NCBI GenBank assembly: GCA_026025075.1 | Contig: JAPEUI010000045.1 | Span: 62,001 to 124,103 of the forward strand | DNA: 62,103 nt | Source of the DNA: Vezdaea acicularis | Taxonomy: Eukaryota | Reading direction: 5' to 3' | Shown: piece after piece, positions 26,063 to 49,135 of the stretch | How the letters are laid out: each line of letters begins with the position of its first letter | Numbering within the stretch: position 1 is the first letter of the stretch | Notes under the pieces: generated by a model | Seen by the model: the letters and a program-made list of their open reading frames with translations, nothing else | The model's database searches: none | Told to the model about the DNA's origin: nothing | Program-made: the position numbers and the translations under genes

Positions 26063-27787
26063 TCAGGCCATAACTCTCATCCTGAAGCGATGCCTCCATC
26101 GGGATCTTGTCTTATTTTCTTTATCTGACGCATTCGTTGTCAGGATGGCTGCTGTTTTGAGCAGCTCAGGCACACTTAAGGGTGTCAAGGTGGATGCCAA
26201 TGACTGCCCCGTATCGAACATGAAGTCATTGCGCGGATGCGAGACGTAGCCTACAGTAGGTAGGAACGCCCTCATCTGAGCAGCCTCACTTATGTACTGC
26301 TGCTGCACAATCTCTTCCTTCACGAACTCGATCAGGGCCTTTACATCCTTCATAGTAGTCATGGCTCCAAGGCTAGCTCGAATAACTCCGGTCGGTTTCT
26401 GCTCAATTACATCGACTTCGTTACCACAACGCACCCCTTCATGATAGTTTCGGCGCATCTCAGCCGCGCTAAGTCTAAGAGACGTTGCAATCCCGCCTGG
26501 ATTACACATGCCCCCTGTGCGGAGCTGAATATTGCGTTTTATGGCCATGCGCTCGAACTCCGTCTTGCCGATCCAAGAACCTTTCCAATCTTGAACATTG
26601 AAGGCAAGAATTGGTGCCTGAGTTTTGCTATCTCCGTATTCTGAATCTTCGTTCTTGTAGATAAAACAGACAAGCTCTCCGTTCATATGTCGTAAAGAGG
26701 ATAACTCTTCAAAGAGATGCTTTGCCAGACTGCAGGTATGACGAGATATTTGATTCATTGACCCATATAGGCGTTCATGCGCACTCATGGCGGAGTCAAG
26801 AGCGATAATACTGTGGAAAGGGATGGTGCCATCCTCAAAGGACTCATGCAGCTGCCCTTCTTTCCTTACGAACCATTGATCTTGTATGCTTGTGACTATG
26901 TCAACTGTTCCTCCACCGAAAAATCGTCGATGCTGAAGCATATCTTGTGCACCTTTTCGAACAATGAGCGCACCTAGGTCAGGAAAGCCAAAGATTTTGT
27001 AAAAGCTCAGGGTAATGAAGTCCGGTGCCTTCTCGTGATCGCTCAGATCTATTTGAGCTGTAGTAGCAAACGCAGCAGCATCGAGTAGTGTGTATAGCCT
27101 TGGGTGTTTTTCATTTGACATATTTCGGAGCCGGCCAGACCAGCTCAGAGGTAACCTATGCCCATTCAGGTTCGATTGTGCGGGGAAAGCAAATAAAGAG
27201 GGGGCGGAGGGCGACTTAGCACTATCTACTCCTCTCGCGCTTGAGCTGCTTTCAATCCAATCCTCAACCTCTTGGTCGGTCTCGAAACACCTAGCTCCAT
27301 GTTGCGCAACCTCACGGACGCCAACAAGGCTAGTGTGTGAATCTCGATGATATCCGTACCAGAAACCTAAGATCTCCTCTTGTGAATTGTGGCAAGTGTA
27401 GTCTCTAAAAGAATCCATCACAAGCTTGATGGCCGCAGTCGCGTTGGCAACGAATATTATGTCAAAACAATTCGGATCAGCCTTAAAGAATTGGAGTAAA
27501 CGCGATCTAACACGTTCAGTCCGTAGCGTTGAAAGCATCGATGATGGCGAGCCTGAGTGAGGATTTCCGTAAAGCCCGGTCTTCATCTCCTTAGCAAATT
27601 CGTTGATGACTGACTTGGCGTAGATAGTGGTCCCCGCATGGTCCAAGTAGGAGGTGCCTGGTTGGGTTGGTTAGAGATCTGATGTCAAGTGAACTACTAA
27701 GGCAATGCACTCGCCTTCCATGATGGGATATTCTTTTCTCCTGATAGCTTCAACATCCCTTGGGTAGTTGTATTTCCTTTCCTTCAT
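26063..27787 (-). CDS. Molybdenum-cofactor-sulfurase-like PLP enzyme (NifS-like domain only), 2 exons with a GC-AG intron (27658-27714)
   Basis: EYPIMEG|TSYLDHAGTT, LYGNPHS, FVANATAAIKLV, YHRDSHTSLVGVRE, SFYKIFGFPDLGAL (PLP Lys), RTGGMCNPGG (catalytic Cys), RASLGAM. Confidence 0.88.
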
Positions 27788-37098: not shown

Positions 37099-38866
37099 AT
37101 GGACGAGCTTCTACCACAGCTACTATCCTTTCCTCCGCACCCGCCACCACCCAAGCCGCTCTCCGAGGTAGCATATGGGACTGGGGCTCGAGATCTTTGT
37201 ACCCTCCTCTCCAAGACACCTGCAAATATCCTGACAGCCGGTGTGAGTGGTGGAGGGGACCTGCTTGAAGTAATGTCACCCTCACATTCACTTTCACCCG
37301 ACATTGTGTCTTCTCAGAAGCAAAAATAACTGACAGGAGGTCCGTAGATACTTGATCCTTCAATCAACTCTATACCTTTCATGTACACCCTTTTAGCACA
37401 CCATCAAATATTTTCCGAGAAAGGCAAGGGGACTGGGAAAGCTACCGCGAATTTTCATACCATGTTGTTCTCAAAGATGGTCCTGTTCTTAGAGCAATTC
37501 GACGGAAGGCAGGTGAGGTATGACGGTTCCTCCTGGAGGCGCGTCTTGGAGTTGATGGTTGATATGGCCATCGAATCTGGAAGTGTACGTGAAACAGTCA
37601 TCCGTCATAAAATAGGCTGACCGATTATCAGCTAGCACTTGCCATATCCCCGGTCAGGACAGCAATCCTACGAATGGATCCTTCATCTTCTACGCTTACA
37701 TCCACCCATCATCTGTTTGTCCGCATGTGTTTGCAAGTAAGGTCATACCGTGCCGCACTACCTATACTAGACAAAGACGTTATCGACTTCCCAATCCCTC
37801 ACACTACGGCAGCACACACTGTCCCTCAATCCGCAAATCGGACAAGCGTATCGTACATCACCGCCGATTCTGGAATATCAGATAAATTGACCTACCATAC
37901 GCCGATGGAGTACCATATATATGGAGCCACAATATACATCGGCTTAAAAATGTGGGAACGGGCATTTGAATTCTTGGAATTTGTCCTCATCACGCCAACG
38001 GATGGGAAAACAAGCCAGATTATGATTGAAGCATACAAGAAGTGGATTCTTGTATGCTTAATACTCAAAGGCATAGTACGTAAACCCTGTTTCGCGTCAT
38101 TCCGGTAGCTAATGAGGCTCCTCATCCACAAAGGTACCTCGAATGCCGCCAGCCTGCGTTAGCAATAGCATTGGAAGGATTTTGTCGCATACAACAAAGC
38201 CCTATTTCTCTTTAGCGCAAGCATTCAAAGAAAGAGACACGACAAGACTGAAAGGTGACATTGAGGCTGGAACATCGATATGGGCCGAAGTACGTTCCAG
38301 TATCCATCTTTTCCAATCAGCGCTGCCACATGTCGTGTTCACTAACTGGATTCCTCAAGGATTCGAATACCAGTCTCGTTGTTCAAGTTCTGGAGGCCTA
38401 TCGTAGGTTCAATATTCTCGCGCTAGGCCAGACATATAGTACGTTGCCTTTATCAAAGGTTCGCGAACACGACATAAATCTTGTACCCGAAGGAACCAAA
38501 GTTCAATCCTTAGAATCTGATACCGAATCGTTTGTCCTCTCCCTCATAGCTTCCGGTGATCTAAAGGCAACCCTATTACCCCAATCTTCGGGAGTTGAAT
38601 CTATCATGCTTTGCTTCCAATCCTCCATACCTCAAATCTCAGAGCAAGAGCAGCTTAGAAACGTGGAGAAACAAAAAGAAAAAATTCTTGCGCTAGATGA
38701 GCACATTAAATCTGCTGATTGCAGACTTAGGCTTAGCAAAGAATACATAGGATGGGAGTACAAAACTAAGAAGGCTAAGGAGTCTGCTGGGCCCACAATG
38801 CAAGGGGCTGGCTTCGGAGCTGGAGATACCATGGATTTGGATGAAGACATGATGGGAGATTTTTGA
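37099..38866 (+). CDS. csn3: COP9 signalosome subunit 3-like PCI protein, 5 exons
   Basis: MDELLPQLLSFPP, ILDPSINSI, FLEQFDGRQVRY, LRMDPSSSTLTSTH, EAYKKWILV, PCI-like C-terminus ending DLDEDMM. Confidence 0.8.
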
Positions 38867-39377: not shown

Positions 39378-40085
39378 TTAAGTAGTCGCGGCCTGGGCGG
39401 GTTGCTCCGTGATTGTCTGGATATCGATCTTCGGCATCGCTGCTCCTACGCTTCCCAGATCTGTTTGCTTCGCCTTTGGATTCTTGGTGTAATAATTAGA
39501 TATGGCGGATTTGATAGCGTCCTCTGCAAGCATCGAGCAGTGTAATTTGACGGGTGGCAAACACAGCTCCTTCGCAATCTCCGTATTCCGGATCTTCCCT
39601 GCATCCTCCAGTTTCATACCCCGGACAAGCTCTGTCAAATAGCTTGAACTAGCAATCGCACTCCCACACCCGAAAGTCTTAAACTTGACGTCTGAGATAG
39701 TGTTATTTGTGGGGTCGACCCGGATCTGAAGTTTCATAACGTCGCCACATGCAGGTGCCCCAACAAGGCCAGTTCCCACATCTGTATCGGCCTTTGACAT
39801 TGATCCTACATTTCGGGGTCTGCTGTAATGGTCGAGCAGTGTGGCAAGTTAGCGGAGAATACATACTGATAGCAGGATCTGATAAGGGTATGGAAACAAG
39901 CACATGAGGGCGGCAAAGATGGAGAGAGTAAGAGAATACTAATCTTTCTCATGATATGATCTCCTCGAATTGGTGTAAACAGTTGCCGGAGCGGCTCTAT
40001 TGACTGGTGAAGAAACCAAGGGTCTAGTTGTCGTAGACAGCACTCGACCCACGGCGGCCGGTGTATGTACTAGAGCTCTTCGCAT
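39378..40085 (-). CDS. ISU1: Mitochondrial Fe-S cluster scaffold Isu1/IscU, 2 exons (40085-39944, 39838-39378) joined by a probable AT-AC intron
   Basis: Arg/Ser-rich presequence; RSYHEKV|LDHYSRPRNVG; GAPACGDVM; FKTFGCGSAIASSS; LPPVKLHCSMLAEDAI. Confidence 0.95.
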
Positions 40086-41087
40086 GCTCGCTATTTGATA
40101 ACTGTCGGGATCTGTAGTTCGTCTATTTTGAAGCTTTTGGCGGAAGTTGATAAAATGGTTGATTTTTTATCAAGGACAGTGAAGGTTGTGAGTTGAGATA
40201 GTTTGTTCTCTGAAAAATGACGACGAGGTTTATGTCATGTCCACTAGCTCCAATCAGATTAGATCAGTGCTAATCACGTGAACGGAACAATCAACAGCCG
40301 AGCGATTCGCGCTCCGATATCTCCGATTTGTGACTACAACATCCTGTCACGAACCTACCTTCCCGTGACTTAGCCTGCGGGACGACTGCGCTTAGCAAGC
40401 GCTAGGTGTACGTCACGTGATTACCGTTATATAGGAAAGCGGGGAAGCACTGTAGAATAACTCCTTAGTATTCAATCGTATCAATCCTAAGAGACATCTA
40501 TTGACTACTATCTACTATTTACTACCGCCTGCGAATCGCATGCGTATCGCATGCGACCATCCGAAGTGAGACTAGTCTGTTGCCTGCCCATACGCACGCG
40601 CCTCACACATCCCCGATATGTCTTCTAAGGATCCGAGTTCTATTCCAATTATGTCGATAATTTTCCTCATGCAAAACCTCTTTTGAGACCATAGCGTTTT
40701 GCTGATTTTGAGAACCATATCTGTTTCTGAAGCTACCACGTTTTCAAAAGGCGTCATATAAAGGTACATCCGGGCTGGGTGCTTTAGTGTTCCATGATCA
40801 TGACCTCAACCTGAGTCATTCAGTCTTGCCTTCAGCTGCTTCGCTCCATACTTCTAGACCAAGGCCTCACTCGCACGCTTAAGCACGCTATGCATTCACC
40901 AGGACCGTGTAGCCCAGGTCTTAGCCTAGGCCAACACCCGTCAAGAATGTAATACTCAATACTTGGTTATACTTTGATTTTGAATACAGAATAGGAAAGA
41001 CGCCTGTTTCCGAATAGACAACTGCTTTCCTCAACAACGGGTAACACTTCCCTCATACCCCTTTAAAGGAAACCCAGCTAGTATATC

Positions 41088-43264
41088 TCACATTCTTTCA
41101 TAAGTTGACATCAGTGAGCCTAGAAATCACTTAGCTCTGACAAGAAGGCTGCATTCGAGAGTACCACTTACCAATGAACGTGACCACAAGCCTACTTCGC
41201 ACATTATTGATATCTTCTGGCACCAACCAAATTGTCGCGCCCATTTTTCTTGCAATACTGATGCCCAACTTGGCATTCATGTAGCACTCATCATCTGTCC
41301 TCCCAGGCGCAACAAGTTCATAGTCCACATAATTCGACTTCATGCCGTTCATTACGTCCAGTAAGAAGATACCATTGCGGATACTTTGTTCCTTGAAGGA
41401 TCGTATCGAGCTAGACTTACCGCCTTTGCGAGACATGTCATTCGCCCATTTTACCATCTCCGAATCGCTAATCTCGCTCTTACCGAGACGCTTCGCAAGA
41501 GCGCTCAGCGTAGTTGAAATGTCTCGGCGCATCAGCTGCCAAACCATCGCAAGGGTTAACGTACGCTGGCCGTCCGTGATATCAGCACCTTGAATCCCAA
41601 CGAGTGAGAACCGATTGTCTTTGCCCAATTGAACCGCATAATTGGTGTTTTCCATAGCTTTGAACCGCATCAGCTCGCCGCCTCCTGGCGCTTTGTTGAC
41701 GTGCCGCCAATTGACGCTTCCTGGTATCACCTTGTCGTACGCCTGGAGTAGAATCGAGCCATCGCGTAAGTCATCGAATAAAGAGTTCACTGCTGGATTA
41801 ACATCTAAAGAGTTGAGCCAGAGAGTGAAGACTCTAGCTTCCCTCTCGCCCTCGGCGTCGAAGTCCTCAATTTCAAGTTTGTCCTCGTCTGTGATAGGAT
41901 CAAGACCAGGATGAGTGTTGAAGAGATGCGCGACGAAAGCGAGATTGAGTTTAGGATTTCCAGCAACGAGGGATGTCGGGGTCAAGAACTTCAGGCAATC
42001 CAACCTGTCGGCGTTTTGTAAGACTTGCTCGGCTCGCTGGAGTAAATCGCGAGTCTGTAGAGGGGCCCGTGTGCAGTTTTCAGGAGAGAGCTGATTTAGG
42101 AGGATAGTGTAATTTTCGCCATCCTTGACATCAGTTGAGAAGTTCGCGACCCTTCAAGCTGTCAGTTAGGTTCATCTTATCAAGCATACGATGGAATACC
42201 TTCTATCCCATTTGGCAGCTTTGAGATGATAATTAAACCACCTTAGCAGGATCTGTTCCGGCGGAAGTCTCAAAAACTGCTCCAATGTCTCATCTTCTTC
42301 CAGCAACCTATACAACTCGGGATGAAGCTTGATATCGATCTTTCCTAGTAAACCTCGCCGAATAATCTGCCATATAAGCCCCAAAATCAAATGCTCTCGA
42401 ACCTCAATAATATCTCCACTTCCGATGTTGACTACAGAGCAGCCAATACCCTTTGCTGAGTTGATCACTATGTTGTTGTTCTCGGTCATATGAAAGGCGT
42501 TCAAAGTCTTGATTTTCTTTCCTGGCCGATTTAGCACACGTTCGTCGATTGTGTCTGGAACACTGTCGTTGATGAGCTTTGCCAATACCAAGCCATCCTT
42601 GCACTCGTCGAACATTTCGAACGTGTCCGTGGGGAATGGAAGTCTATTGCCAATATCTGGATCTCCGAGCAGCACGGCATTGATGTGACGGGTGAACTCA
42701 GTGCGCTCATCTTCATTAATAGTGTGAGTGACATTGGATGATGACCCTTGTACTTGTATCCTTCCCCCAACGCTGCCCTTAGACGCATGACCAGGAGCTG
42801 GGGCTGGACCACTGCTAGTCGGTTGCCTCCCAGGGCCTGTAGACATTCGTTTCTGTGCGGGAGAAGATATGCGCAGCTTTGAAATCAACTAGAGACGGGT
42901 TAATCGCAGATTCCCAGCGTTGATACCTGGCAAACATACGTCGACATAATCATCCAGCTCCACTCTCCTAGAGCTATCTAGTTCTACTTCCTTCAGCGCT
43001 TGCCGAACAACATCATAAGGCTGTCGTTCTGATTGCTGGGTAGCCTTGATCACCGTAGCCTCATCGAGATAGCCTTTATCATCAACGTCCAGCTTGCGGA
43101 ATGATTCTTGGAGGCCAAAAATTTCGTTCTGTTGGAACTGGGGATATTTTCTAGTTATTGAAACTTGAGGTTAGTCTTGATTACTATGACAAGCTTGTGT
43201 CTCGACGCCGCCCAGCGTCTCTCTGCTATCTAGAATCTCACCGTTGCAACTTGATAACATTCAT
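41088..43264 (-). CDS. SAC6: Fimbrin (plastin), multi-exon
   Basis: EF-hand N-terminus, then HTINEDERTEFTRHIN, CH-domain motifs HLILGLIWQIIR, EQILLRWFNYHL and EGEREARVFTLWLNSL. Confidence 0.96.
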
Positions 43265-45981: not shown

Positions 45982-48900
45982 ATGTCTGCTTCTGATAAAC
46001 AACCCATGTTACATGGTGGACTCGGAAGTCTCACCCCATGGAGCTCTCGGACTTCAACTCCAAAGCCTGCAGAGACTGGTGAGAAGGCGCTGCCTAAGGA
46101 CGGATTAGGCCAGCGGAAGGGGGGAGATCATCAAGTTTCTCGCGGACCTAGACTCAGTCTGAAAAGCTACCCAAAAGATTGCCCTCCGTTGAACGTGCGG
46201 TGGTTCTATGCCTCTGATGTAGGCTTTTCCAATGTGCTCTGAATGCTTCGATCGGGGACACTGATGACTGTACGAGCAGATCCCCAAAAGAAAGCCGACA
46301 TTATTAAATAAGGAACCTAAGGATGCTAAGCCTCTACCACCTCCAAAGAAGTTTGTGGCTTTCTCAGTGCAGGATTCGCGGTCCATAGAAAATGCGTTCC
46401 AGAAATTGGCCGAGGAAAACGAATCGAAGCCACCACAACTGGAGAGAGGTGGCGTGCCCGAACCTGGTGATAAGGATAGCACTGCGATTAGAGATACCAA
46501 TCGAGAAGCAAATACCAGTATGGACCACCCTTCAAACTCTGAGAAGGGTGGCAGCGTCAAGGTTCCTGTACAGGAAGATTACTTATTCGACGTTGACATT
46601 GAGAAAAGGGAGCTTGGACCAGTATATTGGATGGGGCCTATATTTGATGTGAAGAGAGGTACGTGGTTTCAAATAGATGGGTCTACAAACAAGCCATGCG
46701 ACGAAAACTTGGCGACTCAGGTTGAAGAGGGATACTTGAAAGTAATGCCATGGCTGAATCCGGCTTCTGGCAGCATTGGTGTTGGAGTAAAAGAGATATC
46801 AAAGGAGCCTTCCGCGAAGAAGGCTGGACAGTTGGAGTCCGACCATAAAATATCTCCAAAGGCGTCAAAGGAGAGCCTCAAAACAGACGATCCCCCGAAG
46901 GAATCATTGAAATCTCAACGCCTTTTCGGGCCTTACTCGAATGCTATCGTGACATACGTGGACGCGAATACCGCCTGGCTTGTGACGGATGACTTGATGT
47001 CGCGCATGAGTAGCACAGTATACGCGCAGTTTGGAGGAGGCGGTCATTTTGGTGGAACCAAACTTACAAGAGGCTATACTGAGCTAGGGAAGCCAAAAGA
47101 TGGCAAAGCAGACGCATCAAACAAGACAGGTGAATCGCAAACTAGACAGGAGAAGACACCTCAAAATTACAAGAGAAGATCAGCCCCGCCAAGCACAGCA
47201 TCTGGAGGCAAACCTGTAGTTTTGAGATCCGACTCTGATCTACGAAAGGAGGCGATAGAGCACAGCTTGACGAAGCTCGTTTCGCGCACAGACGCTGGCG
47301 AGACCGACTTGCAGACTGAAGAAGAACGTGGAAGAGACCAAGAAGATGTACAAGAAGATTATAGCTTAGAAAAAGATAGTAATCAAGATCGGGAAATTGA
47401 GCATCTTCTCTTGGTCACTCACGGCATCGGGCAGCGACTTGGCTTACGGATGGAAAGCGTAAACTTCGTGCATGACGTCAATGTCCTGCGTAAGAACATT
47501 AAAAGTGTGTATGACAACTCACCAGACCTCCAAGCACTCAACGCCGAAGTCGAGGCGCTGCCAAAGAACTGTCGAGTCCAAGTCCTCCCAGTCAATTGGC
47601 GGCACCTCCTAGACTTCCCACGTCAAAGCCTGAAACGTAACAGAGAAGAGCACGACCTCGGCGACAGTTCTCCCTTGGAAGATGAAGAAGATTACCCCAG
47701 TCTACAAGACATAACGCTGGAAGGTGTCCCAGCTGTCCGCGCCGCCATCTCAGACATCGGCCTTGATATCCTCCTCTTCCACAGCGCTTATCGAGAACAG
47801 ATCTCTAGCATCGTCCTCGCCGAAGTGAATAGGATCTACAGCCTCTTTATGCAGCGTAACCCGAACTTCAAAGGTAAAGTCAGCCTATTGGGCCACTCCC
47901 TTGGCTCAGCCATCTATTTCGACATCCTCTCTCGCGCGAAAGGTTCCTCAGATCTCACGCACGCCACCTCGGACTCTAAAGCCTTCTACCACAACCGCCC
48001 CGGCGTAACCCAACGCAACGAAGCAGGGAAAGATGCCGCACTCGTCTTCCCTGTCGAGAACCTCTTCTGCCTCGGCTCCCCCATCGGGTTGTTCCAGATG
48101 CTCAAAGGTCGCACCATCGCTGCCCGCCATTCTCTCGACGGCCCGCCCCCCCAGACACCCTTCGATATCGACACGATGGATGACCCGTTCCTAGGCGCCG
48201 CCAGCACCACCAACACGACTAGTGTCAGCAAAGAGTCAAAAACATACCACCCGCCTTTCACAGTCTCCTCCCCGAACTGCAACCAGCTCTTCAACATCTT
48301 CCATCCCATGGACCCCATCGCCTACCGCCTCGAACCGCTGATCTCTCCCTCTATGGCCTCTCTAAAGCCGCAACCGCTCCCCTACACTAAAAAGGGCATT
48401 TTCGGCGCTCCGATGGGCCTCACCGACATCGGCACGCGTGTCAGCCAGAGCGTCACGGGACTGTGGTCCAGCTTCAGCTCCGGCATCGCGAGCGGGCTCA
48501 TAAACCGCAGTCTCGGCCTCACTGCCGAAGATGCAAAGTCACGCACCCTCCCGATAAGCGCCGAGACCGCCCAAAAAGATGCCAAAGCACTCCAAGACGC
48601 CACCGCTGCTGCGGCCGGAACGGGAATCACCGCGGGCGGGGTCGTCCCCGCCGCCTCCGTACAAGTGAACGCGAGCGTCGACGTCAAAGACGACGCCAAG
48701 AAGCAGCGCCTCGCCCAGGACACGCTGCTCTCGGCCAACTCTCTCGGAGAGACGGAAAACCTCCCCACTCTCATCGACAACGACCTCGACACCCTCTACG
48801 CCGGCTTCCAGAAGCGGCGCAAGAGCCAGCAGAGCGACGAAGGGCGCGATTTCGGTGCCTCTCCCGCATGGGAAGAGAGCGAGGAAAGGGCGAGGCGGCT

Positions 48901-49135
48901 GAGAAGAGAAGAGGCAAAGGTGCGGGCCCTGAACAGGACTGGTCGCGTCGACTTTAGTGTGCAGGAGGGCGTCTTTGATATCAGTCTCATCGCGAGCATC
49001 GCGAGTCACCTCAGCTATTGGGGCGATGAGGATGTGAGTCATTTCATGCTGAGCCAGCTGCTTAGCAGCCAGAAGGGGGGTGCGAAGAGGAAGAGAAGCG
49101 TGGGTAGTGGTAAACAACAGAACTTAGAGGCCTGA
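45982..49135 (+). CDS. DDHD-domain phospholipase A1 (Ddl1/YOR022C-like), 2 exons
   Basis: VRWFYASD|IP, LVTHGIGQ, LGHSLGS lipase motif, FCLGSPIGLF, NIFHPMDPIAYRLEP, ALNRTGRVDF, SHLSYW. Confidence 0.92.

Follow-up and report, generated by a model that had tools for sequence, protein, structure and literature searches.

A probable U2-type AT-AC intron in the ISU1 gene of Vezdaea acicularis and its counterparts in related fungi

Among introns that begin with AT and end with AC, Sheth et al. (2006) define a U2-dependent class, the "AT-AC II" introns, and cite experimental proof for members in the SCN4A and SCN5A genes (PMC1557818). Work described in the same source has demonstrated that a G-to-A change at the first intron base can be rescued by a G-to-C change at the last base in both yeast and human pre-mRNAs, with splicing proceeding less efficiently (PMC1557818). 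In filamentous fungi, some xylanase genes have been hypothesized to hold type II AT-AC introns (PMC1557818). AT-AC ends are generally rare in fungal annotations (PMC7072748), making up 0.03% of SnowyOwl introns (PMC4084796), and they constitute one of several rare non-canonical intron types in Fusarium graminearum (PMC3577648). The F. graminearum genes with non-canonical introns are tabulated in a supplement to that report, where an ISU1 ortholog might be named (PMC3577648). A literature search of texts other than such supplementary gene lists found no report linking an AT-AC intron to ISU1 or IscU; the match obtained for IscU concerned human pseudoexons, and those for Dothideomycetes dealt, to judge by their titles, with polyketide synthases or fungal genomes.

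The DNA analyzed here, referred to as the window, is a stretch of 62,103 nucleotides from the Vezdaea acicularis genome, and all coordinates count from its first letter unless an ortholog is named. On its minus strand lies ISU1, a small, essential housekeeping gene for the mitochondrial Fe-S scaffold, in which the segment from 39943 to 39839 probably represents (with a probability of roughly 0.83) a genuine spliceosomal type II AT-AC intron that is removed by the major, U2-dependent spliceosome. The parts of the gene are as follows.

39944 to 40084, minus strand: ISU1 exon 1, with its ATG at 40084 to 40082, a presequence-like N-terminus and the 3' end TAT CAT GAG AAA G
39839 to 39943, minus strand: candidate AT-AC intron, 105 nt, phase 1, splitting the Val codon of YHEK-V-LDHY
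39938 to 39943, minus strand: 5' splice site ATTAGT, preceded by exonic AAG; by motif comparison it fits U2-type AAG/GTNAGT save for the A at +1
39848 to 39853, minus strand: putative branch-site motif GCTAAC, the sole CTRAY motif inside the intron
39839 to 39840, minus strand: 3' terminal dinucleotide AC, as read from the sequence
39378 to 39838, minus strand: ISU1 exon 2, TG CTC GAC CAT TAC ... TAA, with its stop at 39380 to 39378

Exon 2 encodes the IscU core with the LPPVK motif and the conserved cysteines, scores 199.6 bits against the TIGR01999 IscU profile (curated cut-off 192.4) and is 83-90% identical to named fungal ISU1 proteins. The last base of exon 1, G39944, supplies the first base of the Val codon, and joining it to T39838 yields 200 amino acids in one intact frame that includes LPPVK and the core cysteines. 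This length matches that of the homologs (195-204 amino acids), which carry PF01592. Read on the minus strand, the intron runs ATTAGTATTCTC... GCTAAC TTGCCACAC, or equivalently ATTAGTATTCTC...CCGCTAACTTGCCACAC, and its branch A, assigned by motif, is presumed to be position 39849, 10 nt from the last intron base. A first-pass annotation of this DNA had given the boundaries of the intron, its length and the sequences at its two ends, and all of these coordinates and readings proved correct when the minus strand was read again. It had also stated that retention of the intron meets a stop at once, and the unspliced window indeed reads GAT TAG, the stop being the second codon.

To define the possible splices, the GT-AG, GC-AG and AT-AC pairs near the junction were enumerated exhaustively, provided that they left the IscU core in frame, both in the window and in two genomic orthologs, L003 and L004, that are described further below.

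Window: 37 in-frame options, 16 canonical (GT-AG or GC-AG); 1 yields YHEKV[LI]DHY, the AT-AC pair 39943/39839
L003: 51 in-frame options, 17 canonical; 1 yields YHEKV[LI]DHY, an AT-AC pair at the equivalent position
L004: 135 in-frame options, 48 canonical; 1 yields YHEKV[LI]DHY, an AT-AC pair at the equivalent position

The options in the window comprise 10 GT-AG, 6 GC-AG and 21 AT-AC pairs. The single one that restores the motif is the pair singled out by the first-pass annotation, and no GT-AG or GC-AG pair does so; the claim that removal of an AT-AC segment is needed to obtain YHEKVLDHY therefore stands. The motif itself is universal, with YHEKV[LI]DHY present in 120 of 139 fungal homolog records and ...KV[ILV]DHY..PRNVG in the bacterial IscU loci among 80 loci fetched from metagenomes.

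A conventional splice has nonetheless to be weighed against this solution, because the window contains one canonical option that preserves part of the motif.

39823 to 39939, minus strand: in-frame GT-AG rival, GTATTC...TACAG (117 nt); excising it would give YHEKDYRPRN, with VLDH lost

The enumeration confirmed the earlier reading of its product and identified the pair as the sole canonical option of the window that keeps YHEK. Excision between GTATTC (39939) and TACAG (39823) would be in frame, would retain both YHEK and PRNVG, and can share the GCTAAC branch, and the pair could be used to some extent in the window. That it is the real splice, with a mature protein reading YHEKDYRPRN without VLDH, is nevertheless very unlikely, for four residues would be missing from a motif that is retained in bacteria and fungi alike, and GTATTC does not have the +5 G that is seen in the window's confirmed introns. 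The splice-pair enumeration found no counterpart of the segment in L003 or L004. In L003, none of the canonical options keeps YHEK, and the seven that do so in L004 (two GT-AG and five GC-AG) all yield unrelated sequence and leave the junction motif unrestored.

The splice signals alone were rejected as stand-alone evidence for the AT-AC intron. A loose AT..CTRAY..YAC pattern matched the window 13 times and the GT..YAG version 17 times, so that the former is about as frequent as its canonical equivalent and not above chance. Since the signal pattern is unremarkable by itself, the case for the AT-AC intron rests on the restored reading frame and on the orthologs.

These orthologs were obtained by scanning metagenome contigs with exon 2 and fetching 80 loci. 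Two of the loci are genomic and fungal, namely L003 (best segment 93% identical, on a 22.7-kb contig) and L004 (83%). Two others, L001 and L002, are uninterrupted fungal contigs of about 1 kb that resemble spliced transcripts, and the remaining loci are 56-71% identical, those that read through the motif looking bacterial. Both L003 and L004 carry GAG AAA G/ATAAGT ... [GA]CTAAC ... AC/T[GC] CTN GAC CAC TAC at the same codon position as the window, with AAG/ATAAGT as the 5' site in each. Their introns measure 105 nt (L003) and 128 nt (L004) and end in CTCAC and AAAC, respectively. The distance from the branch motif to the intron end is 10 nt in the window (GCTAAC), 12 nt in L003 (GCTAAC) and 11 nt in L004 (ACTAAC). 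Beyond these signals, an alignment of the three copies showed that the introns barely align at all. The ISU1 AT-AC intron is thus conserved, as had been surmised, in the sense that its boundaries, phase and branch spacing are common to the window, L003 and L004, while the intron bodies have diverged.

Because L003 and L004 share the AT-AC signals, it is very unlikely that the pattern in the window arose by chance or through faulty assembly. It could be argued that GT and AG were turned into AT and AC by a mistake in sequencing or assembly, or that the gene is a decaying pseudogene, given that the bases in question rest on a single assembly of the organism and that filamentous fungi very seldom have AT-AC introns (one pipeline put them at about 0.03% of the introns it predicted; PMC4084796). 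Such an explanation is scarcely credible, however, when the same two bases are found at the same positions in two independent metagenomic assemblies of related species, when an identical footprint is seen in 19 annotated or predicted proteins (see below), and when the spliced frame is intact over 200 amino acids and scores above the IscU cut-off.

L003 and L004 also possess a second ISU1 intron after LPPVK, an ordinary GTGAGT...CTGAT...TAG intron that is absent from the ISU1 gene of the window.

39530 to 39560 of the window, minus strand: second-intron site, reading ...CCACCCGTCAAATTACACTGC...
1794 to 1854 of L003: the same site
1794 to 1851 of L004: the same site

The presence of this intron in the two orthologs and its absence from the window suggest that introns have been gained or lost independently at two sites in ISU1. 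A second GT-AG intron after LPPVK is also found in homolog records that read into junk at this point (P0122, P0123, P0125, P0127, P0128 and P0131).

Protein records of homologs provide a broader view of the junction. The set consisted of 139 records, comprising the 120 best homologs and 19 from a second search; the latter was restricted to one region (residues 36-75 of P0093), with 22 candidates scored, and is a sample rather than a census. It added four deviant records and four intron-less genomic calls. Records that are wrong exactly at the junction number 15 of the 120 best homologs and 19 of all 139, in agreement with the earlier suggestion that gene predictors mis-annotate this site. The footprints of the intron in these records were read from the amino acids of annotated proteins rather than from DNA. 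In nine of the 19 deviants, YHEKD continues with K, M, E or N, and the residues after the Asp fit ATAAGT, ATATGT or ATGAGT; because the Asp codon is GAY, the first intron base in these nine would be A. Similarly, 16 of the 19 have L directly before LDHY, and since a final G would encode V, the last intron base in them would be C or T. Finally, eight of the deviants translate [KQ]LT, the reading of CTAAC, at 12-15 nt before the junction.

By hand count, 51 of the 120 best homologs are NCBI species-named records, and all 15 deviants of this first set are among them. Their distribution by class is given below, ten lineages having been looked up for the assignment.

Dothideomycetes: 11 of 16 deviant
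Candelariomycetes: 2 of 2 deviant
Lecanoromycetes: 2 of 2 deviant
Eurotiomycetes: 0 of 1 deviant
Caeruleum (incertae sedis): 0 of 1 deviant
Leotiomycetes: 0 of 29 deviant

Where records of the affected classes are modelled correctly, the pipelines behind them may be ones that take transcripts or homology into account. In Leotiomycetes, as judged from the protein records, the intron at the junction may be of the GT-AG kind or absent. Intron absence is illustrated by P0122, P0123, P0125 and P0127, which come from genomic contigs of up to 106 kb and read YHEKVLDHY followed by the second intron. Because these four genomic calls run through the motif without interruption, some fungi appear to have lost the first intron.

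What is most simply the spliced form of the transcript was encountered in relatives. Three proteins, P0032, P0033 and P0034, derive from Logan contigs of 1.2-3.9 kb. P0032 is the same as the annotated Botryosphaeria dothidea protein P0037 except at the junction, and P0033 and P0034 differ from it by one or two residues besides. All three have V in place of 28 read-through residues of P0037 (DKS...AAL), precisely what is expected if the 81 nt between G/ and /TG are cut out. Since the B. dothidea annotation reads through an open intron and the contigs are without it, these contigs are most simply regarded as spliced mRNA, their RNA origin being suggested by their size and uninterrupted frame. 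In a related example, Paraphaeosphaeria minitans is represented by two models, of which P0064 reads through the intron and P0055 is correct; elsewhere they are identical.

As for the machinery involved, the U2-type character originally attributed to the intron is upheld by its AAG/ATTAGT and AAG/ATAAGT 5' sites and by a CTAAC branch 10-12 nt from the intron end. The 5' sites (ATTAGT and ATAAGT in DNA; ATATGT and ATGAGT via footprints) vary as U2-type sites do and are never ATATCC. Introns of the window's fimbrin gene have GTATGT and GTATGC as 5' sites and TTAAC and CTGAT as branches; together with the second ISU1 intron of L003 and L004, they indicate that the ordinary introns of this organism are U2-type with a like branch motif. 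Within the 62-kb window, no Rfam family was detected at gathering thresholds. Splice signals and lineage thus point to dependence of the AT-AC intron on the major spliceosome.

Conversely, it is extremely unlikely that the intron is of the U12 type and is removed by the minor spliceosome. Its AT-AC ends would be compatible with this, as would the position of the branch motif, a spacing of 10-12 nt from the 3' end being also typical for U12-type introns. On the other hand, the U12 5' site ATATCC(TT) is matched neither in the window (ATTAGT) nor in L003 or L004 (both ATAAGT). Likewise, the branch is CTAAC and not the U12 branch TCCTTAAC, from which all three contexts (CCGCTAAC, AAGCTAAC and CAACTAAC) depart. 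Moreover, when Larue and Roy surveyed more than 3000 genomes, neither Ascomycota nor Basidiomycota yielded convincing minor introns, and Ascomycota are also reported to lack most minor snRNAs (PMC10639083).

For removal of the AT-AC intron by the major spliceosome, the following mechanism is proposed. To U1 and U6, AAG/AT(T/A)AGT would be an ordinary 5' site that mismatches at +1 only, and the CTAAC branch would be paired by U2. During exon ligation, the second step, a contact of A with C would replace the usual non-Watson-Crick contact of G with G between the first and last intron bases. Choice of the non-AG 3' site would probably be helped by the short, fixed distance from the branch to the 3' end, which is 10-12 nt in the three DNAs and is put at 12-15 nt by the eight read-through proteins. 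If only one end changed, giving GT-AC or AT-AG, the exons of an essential gene should fail to be ligated. Because either single change should be defective, the AT-AC state would persist, and it would most easily be left by changing both ends or by losing the intron precisely. We infer that the AT-AC arrangement is a trapped state that is left mainly through intron loss.

A bolder proposal is that the AT-AC state of ISU1 dates to the ancestor of Dothideomycetes, Lecanoromycetes, Candelariomycetes and the lineage of the window. The intron would then be either a converted U12-type AT-AC intron, left over after Dikarya lost their minor spliceosome, or one that is spliced slowly and has been selected to limit Fe-S scaffold dosage. 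This is unlikely, but if it were true, the ancestral ISU1 intron would be among the oldest known natural uses of an A-C terminal pair by the major spliceosome.

The first-pass annotation had gone further in proposing that the intron serves as an iron-responsive or NMD-coupled control point, and this part of its interpretation found no support. The proposal accepts that the AT-AC intron is real and adds that it is spliced slowly, such that retention, premature stop and NMD tune ISU1 dosage to iron. Several observations are in keeping with it: AT-AC replaces GT-AG in U2-type splicing "although less efficiently" (PMC1557818), the AT-AC state has been retained in an essential gene across several fungal classes, and retention leads to an early stop in the window and in L003. 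Against it, alignment and folding of the three copies revealed no conserved or structured element inside the intron; the copies share splice signals only, and none has a stable fold or folds better than its shuffled controls (z of -0.24, +1.07 and -1.04). Nor is the outcome of retention conserved, since it varies by taxon from an early stop (window and L003) to a frameshift (L004) to an open in-frame insert, as read through in the annotated proteins of Botryosphaeria dothidea and Xylographa carneopallida. In addition, the first intron is evidently dispensable, because P0122, P0123, P0125 and P0127 read YHEKVLDHY without it and have only the second. The need for two simultaneous changes explains the persistence of the AT-AC ends more simply, and a conserved TCACGTG box upstream of the gene hints at ordinary transcriptional control. 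A regulatory role for the intron is consequently quite unlikely.

In the window, a palindrome occurs twice ahead of ISU1.

40274 to 40281: TCACGTGA palindrome, about 190 nt upstream of the ISU1 ATG
40413 to 40420: second TCACGTGA palindrome, about 330 nt upstream of the ISU1 ATG

The 62-kb window contains four copies of TCACGTGA versus 0.76 expected, and two of the four lie within 340 nt upstream of the ISU1 ATG. In the orthologs, TCACGTG is found upstream of ISU1 at -180 in L003 (about 1070-1079) and at -146 in L004 (about 1072-1081), with an ATTGG box nearby. TCACGTGA/TCACGTG may therefore be a conserved promoter element.

Several features of the neighborhood were also noted. An ORF at 38252-38866 (plus strand), with no Pfam match, adjoins ISU1 and has counterparts at 277-798 of L003 and 585-830 of L004. 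It is convergent with ISU1 in the window and upstream of and co-oriented with it in L003 and L004, a difference in orientation that suggests a small local inversion. Other near neighbors are a fimbrin-like gene with CH domains (41131-43161, minus strand) and a gene for a DDHD-domain phospholipase (45982-48967, plus strand). GTATTC was considered as a used 5' site in the fimbrin gene and was rejected, the frame, as read by eye, placing the start of that intron at GTATGC. In Candelaria pacifica, a single record of 1668 amino acids (P0160) fuses the fimbrin-like and DDHD proteins, and it looks like an annotation merge of a conserved gene pair. The DDHD protein of the window (46268-49135, plus strand) has a 99% identical match on a 26.8-kb metagenome contig. 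Its best named relatives (Caeruleum, Chaenotheca, Geoglossum, Sarea, Lasallia and Xylona) are just 54% identical and are spread over several classes, which suggests that the window comes from a poorly sampled lineage of Pezizomycotina. Finally, a class-V aminotransferase ORF lies 12 kb from ISU1 (26063-27670, minus strand; PF00266, the fold family of cysteine desulfurases).

The practical consequences of the ISU1 intron concern annotation in the first instance. Of the 51 records with NCBI species names in the set of 120 best homologs, 15 mis-model this essential, universal gene, every one of them outside Leotiomycetes, and this is attributable to predictors that do not accept AT-AC ends. Such annotations would be mended by a simple rule that allows ISU1 a phase-1 AT-AC intron after YHEK. 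In terms of mechanism, a natural, conserved A...C terminal pair combined with a constant spacing of 10-12 nt would provide a ready substrate for work on the choice of a 3' site that has no AG. Likewise, the retention of AT-AC in some classes, the absence of the intron from some genomes and the freedom of Leotiomycetes from mis-annotation together offer a test of the trapped-state idea.

Among the systems described to date, U12-type AT-AC introns resemble the ISU1 intron in their terminal dinucleotides and in having the branch close to the 3' end. Unlike them, the ISU1 intron has neither an ATATCC site nor a TCCTTAAC branch, and its host lineage is reported to be without a minor spliceosome. 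The yeast and human double mutants contain the same pairing of A as the first and C as the last base, handled by the major spliceosome, and provide the rationale for a joint change at the two ends (PMC1557818). Those mutants were engineered and are spliced with reduced efficiency, whereas the ISU1 intron is natural and resides in an essential gene. The AT-AC introns reported from filamentous fungi are of the same kind and from the same broad group; the portions of those reports that were available describe neither an ISU1/IscU case nor conservation across classes of Pezizomycotina (PMC1557818, PMC4084796, PMC3577648, PMC7072748). The animal type II introns of SCN4A, SCN5A and TAF2 are similar in having AT-AC ends with an otherwise U2-like 5' site, in keeping these ends among orthologs over long distances and in being extremely rare (PMC1557818). 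In contrast to them, the ISU1 intron occurs in a lineage reported to be without the minor spliceosome, with U2 dependence deduced here from sequence, and in a small housekeeping gene with one or two introns. Taken together, these comparisons indicate that the intron kind is already known and that the ISU1 case, judged by its splice signals and orthologs, is a new and unusually well conserved example of it.
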